Of a DNA stretch of 64,000 bases, positions 31,095 through 35,505 are shown one piece after another. Both the position numbers and the translations under genes were made by a program. The notes beneath the pieces were generated by a model. It had not been told where the DNA came from. It did no database searches and saw nothing but the letters and a program-made list of their open reading frames with translations. Source of the stretch: Coleofasciculus chthonoplastes F2-STO-03 (GTDB taxonomy: Bacteria; Cyanobacteriota; Cyanobacteriia; Cyanobacteriales; Coleofasciculaceae). The DNA is taken from the NCBI GenBank assembly GCA_040222015.1, contig JAVJWO010000195.1:32001-96000 (forward strand). Reading direction: 5' to 3'. Each line of letters begins with the position of its first letter. The stretch's first letter is position 1.

Positions 31095-31244
31095 AAAGCT
31101 TCTATTCCGATTTTTATTGGGCAGTAGATAATTATAGCCTGATCATGAACGGATCACGCTGGTGGTTCAGTGGAAATGCAGGGAAGCCGAAGGACTCCAT
31201 GTGCAGGGGACGGAGCGAAGTCTCGTAGTTTACCTGCAAACTGA

Positions 31245-31311
31245 GTAGGGGCGGGTTTTGCACAAATGTTACCATCAATAGCCCACAGAAAATCCCCAAA
31301 CCCGCCCCTAC
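31245..31311. repeat. REPIN-like hairpin element
   Basis: GTAGGGGCGGGTTT...AAACCCGCCCCTAC. Confidence 0.85.
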
Positions 31312-31397
31312 AAGTATCACGAATCACCTTTTCCCCTTAGATTCCCGACGCCTTAATTAAATCGGTCGGGGATTGAGTCGGGACGTGAATCTAACTG

Positions 31398-32941
31398 TTA
31401 ATGACTAAACCATGATTTGCCAGCAATTTCTAGATTTTTCTGGAAATATCTCCTCTTGTGTGGTAGGATATTGAGTGATTTATCAAACACTAACATTAAG
31501 ATATGCCACGCCGAGGGAAGCGTCTCAAGTCCTCCAAGTCTCTCCAAAAACACTGCGAAACTGGGACAGAGACGGCGAGAACCGAACAATTAGAACTCCT
31601 GCGGGTCATCGACGGTACGATATCGATTCCGTCGTCAATCCAGAGGGCGATACAAGAATCAGAGTCCTCTATGCCAGAGTTAGCTCATACAAACAAAAGT
31701 CAGAGATGGTGCGACAAGCCGACTACCTGCAATCCCTGTTCACAAACGGAAAGCTTATCAAAGAAGTCGGCTCAGGACTCAACTACAAGCGCAAAGGACT
31801 TCTTTCCCTTTTGGGACAAGTTTTGTCAGGAAACGTCAGAGAAGTTGTGGTCTCGATCAAAGACCGACTTGTCAGGTTCGGTCTTGACCTTATCGAATGG
31901 CTCTGTCAACAAAAAGATTGCTTCCTCGTGGTTCTCAACCGAAGTGACTTGTCTAATGAGCGAGAAATGGTTGAAGATATCCTTGCCATCGTCCATGTCT
32001 TCAGTTGCAGATTGTACGGTCTCAGAAAGTACAAGTCTGCTATCAAAGAAGATCCGAGTTTATCCAGAAACAACGCTGGCTAAAGCCTGGTTTCAGTGGA
32101 TTTCGGCTGCACGATGGTGCTTTAATCAGGCAATAGCCATACTTAAGACCCAGAAAATTGGCAAATACGACCTCCGAAAAATGGTCATGGACATGGCTCC
32201 ATCTTGGGTAAGTCAAACCCCTTATAACCCACGCCAACTGGCGGTATTTCAAGCCTTTGAAGCACATAAAGCGGCAAGGAAGTCGGGGGGAGATGCTCAA
32301 TTCAGATCTGTGCGTGAACCCGTTAAATCCATTCGGTTTCAAAAGGACAATTGGAAGAAGGGAGCGTTTTACCCGACACAGACCAAGGGATTAAGCTTTA
32401 AGGCAAGTGAGCCAATCATCGATAAAATGCAGCATGAACCTGCCTTGGTCTTGGACAGAGGGCGCTGGTTTATTTGTTATGCCATAGACGCGCCTAAGCC
32501 CGAACCTTTGGATAGCCAACTGGCTATCGCCCTTGACCCTGGCGTGAGAACATTCTTGACCGGGTTCGACGGTTCTGAAGTCTGGGAGGTTGGCAAGTAT
32601 GACATAGGGCGCATTTATCGGTTAGCCAGTCACCTTGATCGGTTGATGTCTCGAATCGGTCTATCTAAGGGACGCCAGTTTAAACACTTGCGGTATCAAG
32701 AGTACACCAGTAAAACCTGTTCAAAATGTGGTCATGTTCACACAAAATTAGGAGGCAACAAACGATTCGTTTGTCCCTCCTGTGGTCATACTATTGGGCG
32801 TGATATCAATGGCGCTTTCAACATTCTGTTGAAGGACTTTGAGAGATACCTCCACATCTGGTGTGATAGCTTCATTCCAGATTGTGCCATACTCAGAAAC
32901 TTCCGGAGCCATACCAGATTTTTCCGGGTTAAATGTATCTG
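31398..32941 (+). mobile_element. IS607-family element (tnpA serine recombinase plus pro-Fanzor-like tnpB), internally deleted
   Basis: CTG core at both ends (31395-31397 and 32939-32941); short TTC(T/C)GG-like repeats near both ends; removing the element restores a glgA stop. Confidence 0.85.
31475..32083 (+). CDS. tnpA: IS607 TnpA (MerR-like HTH plus serine recombinase)
   Basis: PKTLRNWDRDG..RTPAGHRRY, catalytic YARVSS, EVGSGLNYKRKGL, DRLVRFG, HVFSCRLYGLRKY. Confidence 0.93.
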   Translation: MIYQTLTLRYATPREASQVLQVSPKTLRNWDRDGENRTIRTPAGHRRYDIDSVVNPEGDTRIRVLYARVSSYKQKSEMVRQADYLQSLFTNGKLIKEVGSGLNYKRKGLLSLLGQVLSGNVREVVVSIKDRLVRFGLDLIEWLCQQKDCFLVVLNRSDLSNEREMVEDILAIVHVFSCRLYGLRKYKSAIKEDPSLSRNNAG

Positions 32942-32942
32942 A
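31503..32942 (+). pseudogene. tnpB: IS607 TnpB (pro-Fanzor-like), overlapping tnpA, missing the segment between RuvC-I and the Zn finger
   Basis: KKIRVYP, ALDPGVRTF, YTSKTCSKCG..CPSCG..RDINGAFNI; only about 60 aa from the RuvC-I Asp to the first Cys, versus about 140-145 aa in the other two TnpBs here. Confidence 0.85.
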
Positions 32943-34371
32943 TAACACCTGTAAGGGTTGAATCAGCCTCTTGTGTTTGGGCAGTTTCGTCCTCTGGCGG
33001 TAATCCTAAAACCTCTCGGTAGGTGCGGATATACTGTTTGGCTGATTTATCCCAACTGAAATTCTTACGCATACCGCGTTGCTGTAGTGTTGTCCATTGT
33101 TCTTTAAAGCGGAAACCTTCCCAAGCCCGTACCATACAGGTATAAAAGTCTAACGGTTCATAGCGGTCAAAACAGTAACCTGTCCCAGTTTGGCTAACAG
33201 GTTCATGGTGAAAAACCGTATCCACCAGACCCCCGGTGCGCCGGACAATGGGGACACAACCATAGCGCATAGAGAGCATTTGAGTAATGCCACAAGGTTC
33301 AAAGCGGGATGGCATTAGGAATGCATCACAACCCGCATAAATACGTCGGGACAGAGCATCACTATAAAGGAGTTGGACAGACATACGACCCCGATAGCGA
33401 GATGCCAATTGCCACATTTGGGTTTCGTAGTAGCGTTCACCAGATGCCAGCAATATAAATTGGGCATCGGTATAAGCTAAGAAGCGATCAATGACTTGTA
33501 ATAATAGGTCAATCCCCTTTTGCTCCACGAGGCGCGTGACCATGCCCATGAAAAAGGCATTGGAGTTGACTTCTAAGCCCACTTCTTCTTGCAAGGTCAC
33601 TTTGTTTTTGCGACGTAATTCCAGCGTATCGGCGCTGAATTTTTGCTCGATATATTTGTCGGTTTCTGGGTCATAACTATCCGTATCAATGCCATTAATA
33701 ATCCCGACGGTTTTACCACTAATGAAAGACATTAAGCCTTCTAGGGTTTCACCGTATTCAGCCGTGCGGATTTGTTCTGCATAAGTTGGCGACACGACAG
33801 TCACTCGATCCGCAAATTGTACCGCTGCTGCCAGCGTATTATGACCTTGCATATACCAGGGACACCAGGTTATCTGCTGTAAGCGCCAGCGCCAGGGACC
33901 TTGATACGCCAAGTTGTGAATCGTAAAGACGGTGGAAATATCCGGGGATTGATTCATCCACACCGGAATCATGCCTGTATGCCAATCGTGACAATGAATA
34001 ATTTGCGGTTTCCAGTAGTTCCAGGCAAACTCAGCCGCGCCATTAGCAAAGAGAGTAAATCGCCAGTCTTCATCCGCTCCGGCGTAAATATGGCGTCCTG
34101 AGAAGGCGAGATGACCAAACAGATAGAGGGGGACATCGGTTCCGGGTAATACCGTCTCATAGACAGCGAATGGCTCAAACATGGCAGATCCCCACCAGAC
34201 AGGTTCTTTGGGAATCTCCATCTTGTCGGGTAAAAAGCCGTAATACGGCATAAAAATCCGCACATCATGTCCCAAGCGCTTCAGGAACTTAGGCAATGCG
34301 CCCACGACATCCCCCATACCGCCGACTTTTGCCAGGGGCGCTACCTCTGCGGCAACAAACAGAATATTCAT
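32929..34371 (-). CDS. glgA: Glycogen synthase
   Basis: [39 protein letters not shown]. Confidence 0.97.
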
Positions 34372-34548: not shown

Positions 34549-35505
34549 CTAACCTTCCATCACCTGATTAAACCGATCTCTCCCCGCATGATAATCTTTA
34601 CTTTCATACCCCATAACATGCCGGACAATCCACTTTTGTGATCTGCCATCCTCCATCAGTAAACGAATCGCCTTCCTCAACACCTGCTCCTGATCAATAA
34701 ACCGTTCAACAAACCAGTTTTCGGTTTCCGCAAATCCCCGCTTATCATTTTCAGCACTGCGATTCAGATAAAAGGCGGCTAATAATGCTTTAAATGATTT
34801 GCCTAAAACTTTCTCATTTCCCAAATTTAGCGCCGTCAACTCTTCAGTCGTGATTTGATTGATAAAGTTGGATTGATTCTCTTTAGAGGTCAATTCCTTA
34901 AATAAGTCATTTAAATTGCCCACTTTAACATTGGGAAGATAGCCATACAAATAATCCGCAACTATCCCCTTCAATACCGCATCTCCCAGAAATCTTAACT
35001 GTTTATTCGGTGACGAACGCTCTTTTATCTTTTTTAAATGACGCTCCAGCAAGGGCGCAATCAACTGCTTAACTAACCAATTCCGCGCCTGAGAAAACCC
35101 CCGATCCTGATGAATCGCCCCAACTAACGCTATCAATGCTTCTTCAAAGGGATTATGATTTTGTAAACGCAAGCGATGCCGTTCTTGCGTCAGTCCCAGA
35201 AACGGATACCCTTCGCCTAACCCCAATTTATCCCACAGTTTGGTTAACCGTTGTCCTTCGACTAACTTGTCCCGTAAGCCTTTAAAATTACTCACCTCTA
35301 AATAGGGACAGTTGTGATATAAATAGTCAGTAATTACCAGATTAAAAATAGCATTTCCCATAAATTTTAATCGCTCATTATTCTGTTCAGATTCTCCAAT
35401 TTGTTCAGCATAAGAACGATGCATCAAAGCAAGTCTAAGCAGATCACTATGCTTAAACTGAATACCGATTTGGCTTTCTAAAGATTCAGGATTCCATTCC
35501 ATCAT
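34549..35505 (-). CDS. Tandem RNase III-like domain protein (degenerate catalytic residues, no dsRBD)
   Basis: ALMHRSY..NERLKFMGNA and NKQLRFLGDAVL resemble the RNase III signature NERLEFLGDA. Confidence 0.85.
   Translation of the reverse strand: MMEWNPESLESQIGIQFKHSDLLRLALMHRSYAEQIGESEQNNERLKFMGNAIFNLVITDYLYHNCPYLEVSNFKGLRDKLVEGQRLTKLWDKLGLGEGYPFLGLTQERHRLRLQNHNPFEEALIALVGAIHQDRGFSQARNWLVKQLIAPLLERHLKKIKERSSPNKQLRFLGDAVLKGIVADYLYGYLPNVKVGNLNDLFKELTSKENQSNFINQITTEELTALNLGNEKVLGKSFKALLAAFYLNRSAENDKRGFAETENWFVERFIDQEQVLRKAIRLLMEDGRSQKWIVRHVMGYESKDYHAGRDRFNQVMEG

Follow-up and report, generated by a model that had tools for sequence, protein, structure and literature searches.

How did the front of a pro-Fanzor nuclease gene come to lie inside the gene of its partner transposase, and is the protein stretch encoded there related to the N-terminal domains of the Fanzor2 nucleases? 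The question is raised by a 64,000-nt stretch of Coleofasciculus chthonoplastes F2-STO-03 DNA (the window), in which an IS607 element carries a tnpB frame that stays open through nearly the whole of tnpA. In an intact IS607 element TnpA would excise and insert the DNA at a TG core, and TnpB with its ωRNA would cut the empty donor sites and thereby drive retention. The original prediction, made from the letters of the window, held that the open frame adds about 180 residues to TnpB, that these resemble Fanzor2 N-termini, and that, if so, the domain arose by overprinting the serine-recombinase gene. Why this particular clade reached eukaryotes is left open in the available parts of Yoon et al. 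(2023, bioRxiv 10.1101/2023.08.09.552727).

The IS607 element of the window and its damage

Translation of the window confirmed that the tnpB ORF, which lies in +1 relative to tnpA, has no stop, including where it runs over the final 581 nt of that gene (Table 1). The tnpA product belongs to the IS607 transposases, matching NF033518 at 177 bits (cut-off 110) as well as the Resolvase and MerR domains. The TnpB protein carries PFW at residues 102–104, SSWFS at 141–145 and KKIRVYP at 182–188, and the DPG of RuvC-I and the YTSKTC..RDxNGAxNI end that had been noted were located at 345–347 (DPG), 399–406 (QEYTSKTC) and 433–437 (RDING). The overprinted N-terminal domain is read from the second half of the tnpA catalytic domain, and the start of the leader ahead of it differs in position among subfamilies. 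The closest relatives of the element are in Oscillatoriales-type records (Laspinema, Oscillatoria and Hormoscilla), which places it among cyanobacterial hosts as is typical of pro-Fanzors.

Table 1. Features of the IS607 element, in window coordinates
Feature	Position	Strand	Observation
Left end of element, approximate, from a TG dinucleotide	31396..31474	+	Similarity of 8 homologous loci starts here
Short direct repeat (D13) in left end, recurring at right end	31432-31443	+	Repeat listing
Putative extended −10 element, TG-N-TAGGAT (TATAAT in relative L009)	31459..31469	+	Conserved block
tnpA, serine recombinase with MerR-like HTH and resolvase domain	31475..32083	+	YARVSS at 31670
tnpB (pro-Fanzor) ORF, +1 frame of tnpA	31503..32942	+	479 aa; intact homologues 558–563 aa
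Overprinted leader, residues 1–88, Ser/Lys-rich, predicted disordered	31503..31766	+	Stop-free, weakly constrained
Overprinted N-terminal domain, residues 89–181	31767..32045	+	Selection, model, match to Fanzor2
PFW..LW helix; SSWFS plus strand	31806-31850; from 31923	+	Inside overprinted domain
KKIRVYP, first WED strand of TnpB core	32046..32066	+	Still within tnpA
RuvC-I DPG motif	32535..32543	+	
In-frame deletion junction	32697..32699	+	Removes much of RuvC, cuts shifted catalytic Glu codon
EYTSKTC zinc finger and RuvC-III RD motif	32700..32813	+	
One extra base, shifting frame of last codons	32836..32836	+	
Predicted ωRNA scaffold and right end of element	32810..32941	+	Overlaps tnpB 3′ end

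The element has the TG ends of IS607 and a direct repeat at 31432 and 32916; among the repeats listed for it there is no terminal inverted repeat. On the right it closes with TATCTG at 32941, where similarity ends sharply in 12 loci, just beyond the repeat copy at 32916–32927, and it adjoins the 3′ end of an opposite-strand glycogen synthase-like gene (32929–34371). On the left, the putative −10 element would leave a leader of 20–30 nt ahead of both start codons; a consensus scan returned no canonical sigma-70 site. At the 3′ end of the element genes overlap once more, as the predicted ωRNA runs across the final ∼40 tnpB codons, and the secondary structure of its stem-loops (RNAalifold) is weakly supported, with 3 of 43 pairs covarying.

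Judged by its coding sequence, the window copy encodes a dead nuclease; it derives from a pro-Fanzor IS607 element but is defective and no active member. About 86–88 codons of the intact homologues are absent after 32697 through an in-frame deletion, and at its junction Gln stands in place of the invariant Glu of E-x-YTSKT. This catalytic Glu (E487 in the intact relative L009) is invariant in homologues and aligns with E467 of the mimivirus Fanzor2 ApmFz2, and the DPG motif is invariant in 33 full-length homologues. The pro-Fanzor assignment thus holds for the family, which has DPG, an IS607 tnpA and, in intact homologues, the Glu beside the zinc finger, whereas the window copy itself has lost that Glu. 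An extra A at 32836, present in none of 11 homologous loci, shifts the TnpB C-terminus, and the tnpA ATG of the homologues reads TTA at 31496–31498, so that the GTG at 31475 is the only start left. Near-identical public contigs from runs X1, X2 and X3, with the same right flank, have 264 letters at the deletion and no extra base, and the two lesions are therefore either strain-specific or assembly errors. Two of these runs instead have a change at 31583 that, read from the sequence, ends tnpA prematurely and leaves the +1 protein unaltered. The sister strain (runs X1 and X3) has a nuclease without the deletion or frameshift of the window and a tnpA with a premature stop and no ATG; it may carry a fixed copy that retains only the nuclease. 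RNA contigs of run X2 span 31499–33100 and not 31328–31498, which, coming from one study, shows neither a start nor expression. No intact copy of the element was found in the genome from which the window comes; the four other tnpAs there are only 33–44% identical (one of them, L095, was used as a control and has 14 stops in +1). L009 occurs as several near-identical copies within one genome. Because the window copy is broken, its relatives have to serve as the source for the biology.

The +1 frame of tnpA is open across the clade

Three sets of loci were compared. A TnpB core-only query against 401 cyanobacterial genomes gave 50 loci (L033–L082, window included), the IS607 TnpA family model gave 30 control loci (27 intact), and viral and metagenome contigs searched with a profile of TnpA only gave 160 loci (134 intact, 111 after dereplication). 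Truncated or stop-containing tnpA genes were left out before counting (38 of 82 in L001–L082, 3 of 30 controls and 26 of 160 viral and metagenome loci), and near-copies above 85% identity were removed after this filter. The patterns used to retrieve loci L001–L032 contained +1-frame sequence, which biases this group; the headline counts come from the core-only and TnpA-only sets.

All 31 intact full-length tnpA genes of the core-only set are free of +1 stops after codon 28, against 13–24 stops in each of the 27 intact controls. Among the viral and metagenome loci the frame is open over tnpA codons 95–185 in 103 of 111, and the domain HMM matches in all 103. When codons were redrawn from host usage with TnpA held fixed, in 19 dereplicated bacterial elements (a close relative standing for the window copy), 6–10 stops were expected per element and 0 were observed, with P between 1e-4 and 5e-7 for each; a conservative null that shuffled each gene's own codons gave P ≤0.064, mostly <0.02. 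The elements are kin, and these P-values are therefore not to be multiplied and, like the z-scores below, overstate. A chance origin of the open frame is excluded.

The TnpA family also occurs in the controls, two archaeal control genomes among them, with the +1 domain closed in the control tnpAs; a quick, unfinished TnpA tree gave two changes and is compatible with a single origin. The new frame accordingly has a narrower distribution than tnpA, and it is open beyond chance and under selection of its own, which are the marks of overprinting. No Pfam or NCBIfam family matches TnpB residues 1–180. The overlap-bearing family spans cyanobacteria, phages and giant viruses.

Selection acts on the second half of the overlap

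Fourfold third-position identity in 52 dereplicated elements is 0.27 over tnpA codons 10–40 and 0.33–0.37 over codons 41–100, rises to 0.57–0.59 over codons 101–160 and is 0.44 over codons 161–190, compared to 0.28 for the core of tnpB and 0.33 for tnpA of the controls. Given the absence of stops, conservation exceeds the synonymous expectation at z >4 in 42 of 95 positions within residues 86–180 and in 7 of 86 within residues 1–85. The constraint peaks (z 6–12.5 on the same condition, 52 elements) at P102, W104, S112, L115, P118, T121, S142, W143, F144 and S145. Without the condition, z >4 was reached in 6 of 191 control columns and 41 of 191 columns of a size-matched overlap subsample. From this distribution it follows that the second half of tnpA encodes a real domain and the first half a leader that is kept open. 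Both the +1 stop depletion and the suppressed synonymous variation that overprinting predicts are thus present, and relatives with frequent +1 stops were not found; of the proposed extension of about 180 residues the open frame stands in full, but amino-acid constraint is confined to residues ∼90–190, the first ∼85 being a drifting, disordered, stop-free leader.

TnpB start codons and their pairing with the tnpA start

In all 52 dereplicated elements the last +1 stop lies upstream of residue 77 and an in-frame ATG occurs at or before residue 88, often 1–4 codons past that stop (in L033 just before the aligned part). The position of the ATG drifts, being found at residues 1, 21–24, 39–49, 57, 67 and 81–88, and where a Tyr TAT reads TAC another ATG is found nearby. 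In the subfamily of the window the ATG is residue 1, 7–10 nt past the tnpA ATG in intact relatives, and in L016 this is the sole ATG of the whole overlap. A start near 31957–32040 would have spoken against a translated overlap, but neither internal ATG (31956 or 31995) is conserved: residue 152 is ATG in fewer than 8 and residue 165 in 11 of the 52 elements. No SD-like site lies upstream of ATG 31503, at which translation of TnpB probably begins, given this pattern of ATGs.

Contigs of giant-virus MAGs (GVMAGs) keep the overlap in 19 of 22 dereplicated loci, and the architecture, first proposed as a bacterial example of dual coding, therefore persists in giant-virus Fanzor2 elements as well. 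With a mean GC of 0.31, 18 of the 19 open elements have no +1 stop anywhere across tnpA, and in 17 of 19 the first Fanzor-frame ATG lies 4, 7, 10 or 13 nt past the tnpA ATG, against a background chance of ∼0.12 per element (these being kin and so not independent). The paired-start ATGs are assembled from different codons. At some of seven GVMAG loci scanned, flanking genes encode U-box, RING or cytochrome b5 domains (5 of 21 proteins matched anything). Elsewhere the layout is mixed, with pairing in 14 of 33 other viral and 31 of 47 metagenome loci. Among 20 cyanobacterial elements, 7 have a start spacing of 7–13 nt, 9 start 22–121 nt in and the rest were unscored. Shared descent could account for part of the enrichment in giant viruses, and cyanobacterial elements already have paired starts.

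In yeast, AUGs within about 17 nt of each other compete for initiation (PMC9743702). On this analogy we hypothesize that the overlap would make the element expressible from one mRNA by scanning eukaryotic ribosomes, and the paired starts may explain why the clade entered eukaryotes.

The domain outlives tnpA and decays without tnpB

Ten loci that have lost most of the HTH half of tnpA (L005, L007, L024, L036, L038, L060, L122, L130, L142 and L143) still have a stop-free +1 domain, and of the 37 rows flagged in this survey, a number that counts duplicates and contig-edge cases, 32 are free of +1 stops and 5 have stops. Conversely, in L279, L295 and L414, where tnpA has no downstream tnpB, +1 stops stand beside a residual domain score. 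The viral loci L340 and L321 have tnpB on the strand opposite to tnpA; the tnpA +1 frame contains 30–35 stops, and the nucleases retain only a TWF or TNSWF piece. These losses show that the +1 domain outlives the loss of tnpA and decays after the loss of tnpB. The opposite-strand layout is a possible route to the mimivirus-type Fanzor2.

Rearranged copies also occur. L004, L006, L022 and L421 have frameshifts or deletions that join the HTH of tnpA in frame with the overprinted domain and the nuclease; they could be accidents or HTH-nuclease fusions. L022 and L023 have compensating frameshifts inside tnpA, so that each frame contains a stretch of the other's sequence, both largely open.

The overprinted domain and the N-terminal domain of Fanzor2

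The domain profile matched 1,378 protein clusters (clustered at 50% identity). To relate the domain to known structures we used an AlphaFold2 model of the intact L009 protein (residues 93–539, 114 sequences, no templates), an earlier model from 33 sequences having been dropped as poor (pTM 0.49). The model has a pLDDT of 87.5, about 90 in the PFW..LW helix and SWFS strand, with disordered linkers. ApmFz2 (PDB 9B0L) is its best PDB match by profile and by fold (Z 28.9, rmsd 3.4, 402 aligned, model 8–447 on chain 53–518; the search gave no residue-level output), and among the 50 rows returned 9B0L is the only one to align from the start of the domain, the other 49 beginning at 45 or later and nearly all at 74–89. 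The region covered corresponds to the ApmFz2 N-terminal domain, residues 53–130 with RuvC-R at 65–91. In full-length profiles ApmFz2 72–130 or 77–117 aligns to the domain and the SWF motif falls on N82-S83-W84; Schargel et al. (PMC11832414), in the sections available to us, describe N82 and S83, within RuvC-R, as contacting the ωRNA pseudoknot. The model accordingly predicts that the PFW..LW helix and SWFS strand pack on the core like RuvC-R of ApmFz2, and that the N/S-S-W motif contacts the ωRNA pseudoknot.

ApmFz2 differs from the overprinted domain in having a basic thumb and no PFW helix motif, retaining only W-x-P-T and NSW pieces at a shorter spacing (16 versus 27 residues). Domain-only searches of the PDB, with a single sequence and three profiles, gave no match and missed 9B0L at E ≤10, so that the link to ApmFz2 rests on the core-anchored alignments and the aligned range. 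The comparison by HMM and structure asked for at the outset thus succeeds for the model and for full-length profiles and fails for the isolated domain. ESM Atlas matches (0.90–0.91) were weak and included HTH_OrfB residues, and are not counted as support; a second protein search returned no named eukaryotic protein.

The predicted resemblance to Fanzor2 N-termini is borne out further in NlovFz2. Four Naegleria lovaniensis Fanzor2 rows (Saito 2023, supplement file 5) open, by eye, with PFW..S..LW..WF, and NlovFz2 and the window protein share P-F-W-D, Q, S and K-L-W in register, followed by a WF motif (likewise by eye). Saito et al., in the available text (PMC10432273), describe this segment of 96 aa as unique and disordered, whereas our model predicts two ordered elements within it. 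The tnpA-less viral Fanzors L156 and L176 have the motif with shortened spacing. By eye, the two Mercenaria Fanzor2 rows of the same supplement (MmeFz2) lack a clear motif; so do several giant-virus Fanzors (L161, L163 and L181), and the domain is therefore not universal in Fanzor2. With respect to what defines a Fanzor2, an N-terminal domain that completes RuvC (RuvC-R) is indicated by the model and the profile alignment, and a eukaryotic or eukaryotic-virus host is lacking for the bacterial window and found for relatives on GVMAG contigs.

Comparison with known systems

Canonical IS607 elements share the TnpA family, and their tnpB usually starts near the end of tnpA, mostly in the +1 frame, but the overlap is at most about 70 nt, the tnpA +1 frame has 13–24 stops and RuvC-I reads DLG or DVG where seen. 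The pro-Fanzors (TnpB2) of Yoon et al. agree with the present family, as far as the accessible text goes, in the IS607 tnpA partner, the cyanobacterial host, the DPG in RuvC-I and the Glu beside the zinc finger of intact homologues; the window copy differs in having no Glu. A tnpA/tnpB overlap or N-terminal extension is not mentioned in the available portion of the bioRxiv version, nor are overlap, frame, N-terminus, start codon or extension in that of the NAR main text (PMC10711439), although its supplements may draw the overlapping ORFs. Schargel et al. call the N-terminal domain of ApmFz2 unique to Fanzor2 and offer no origin, and the word TnpA is absent from the main text, in each case as far as the article is accessible (PMC11832414). 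The accessible parts of PMC3627910, PMC10530073, PMC10432273 and PMC13565253 do not mention the overlap either, and PMC11071296 is irrelevant. Our literature search, which had subscription papers, ISfinder/TnPedia, figures and the Yoon supplements outside its scope, found no description of the overlap; the kind of element (pro-Fanzor IS607) is already known, and the texts searched gave no account of its dual-coding architecture or of how the Fanzor2 domain originated.

The ApmFz2 gene is not known to overlap a tnpA. To our knowledge, long functional out-of-frame overlaps have rarely been documented in bacteria. Known cases of overprinting with competing AUGs within about 17 nt likewise have a frame that arose de novo across an older gene; unlike in these cases, the new frame here encodes a domain integral to a second conserved enzyme, went on to become a coding sequence standing on its own, and sits in a transposon common to bacteria, phages and giant viruses.

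Discussion

Taken together, it is very probable that this IS607 clade is dual-coding and that its overprinted domain is homologous to the N-terminal domain of Fanzor2. Since the front of tnpB lies in the second frame inside tnpA and is under selection, the Fanzor2 N-terminal domain likely arose by overprinting of tnpA, as had been proposed; the open frame, its own selection and the Fanzor2 match all support this. The process would have started from the short overlap of ordinary IS607 elements, only some codons long and usually also in +1, for which the short overlaps of the controls are a plausible starting point, and the tnpB start would then have crept upstream as +1 stops disappeared. The new stretch, we propose, became fixed because it stabilises the nuclease: the domain is predicted to dock on the nuclease core and brace RuvC and the guide RNA. 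One short-leader mRNA likely yields both TnpA and a TnpB of ∼560 aa, and the overprinted domain is likely the ancestor of the Fanzor2 N-terminal domain. The fuller scenario, in which that domain was born de novo in the tnpA +1 frame and the overlap let the clade enter eukaryotes, we offer tentatively, at somewhat less than even chances; in it the leader, being basic and disordered, may also have brought a nuclear localisation signal with it.

If ribosomes instead reached the +1 frame by frameshifting or slippage from tnpA, TnpB would have no start of its own and would be made as a TnpA(HTH)-TnpB fusion. Such in-frame fusions of HTH, domain and nuclease do exist as DNA, and ATG 31503 has no SD ahead of it, but the presence, in every one of the 52 elements, of an in-frame ATG after the last +1 stop and no later than residue 88, its replacement by a neighbour where Tyr TAT has become TAC, and its reconstruction from different codons at the four giant-virus spacings make this account improbable. 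We give still less weight, close to none, to the idea that the open frame and the fixed wobbles reflect an RNA or DNA element in tnpA or codon bias, with TnpB starting near residues 152–180. Nucleotide constraint can imitate dual coding, and stop avoidance accounts for part of the Ser enrichment; against this, a start near the core is not conserved, L016 offers only its residue-1 ATG, the motif survives at the protein level in NlovFz2 and in viral Fanzors that lack tnpA, the domain docks with high confidence in the predicted model, and even AT-rich giant-virus elements are, with one exception in 19, free of +1 stops.

The link to the mimivirus lineage is open to a different objection, namely that the bacterial domain is real and that the mimivirus-type Fanzor2 N-terminal domain is independent and converged on a similar docking site. 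The failure of domain-only profiles to find 9B0L and the few residues of shared identity are what one would see in that case. Convergence nevertheless seems unlikely to us, as intermediates exist in the shortened spacing of L156 and L176, and in L340 and L321, with their opposite-strand tnpB, closed tnpA +1 frame and only the TWF/TNSWF piece, while the full motif is present in NlovFz2.

On the preferred reading, dual coding with common descent of the Fanzor2 domain, a eukaryotic RNA-guided nuclease would owe a domain that is structured and contacts RNA to a traceable event, de novo birth inside the gene of another conserved enzyme, and all stages can be seen today: elements with a short or a full overlap, copies with a dead tnpA, and genes that have separated. 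If TnpB does start within a few bases of tnpA, a two-gene bacterial element would be readable from one capped mRNA, and the paired starts make the colonisation of eukaryotes by this clade, left open by Yoon et al., addressable by reporter assay. In practical terms, pro-Fanzors cloned from an annotated short start would miss about 90–180 residues and may appear inactive.

Two further observations concern the surroundings of the element. An intergenic repeat of ∼70 nt at 31240–31312 has more than 100 similar copies genome-wide, some in tandem; it is REP- or MITE-like and unrelated to the IS. On the other side, 34549–35505 encodes a protein with two tandem RNase III-like repeats.
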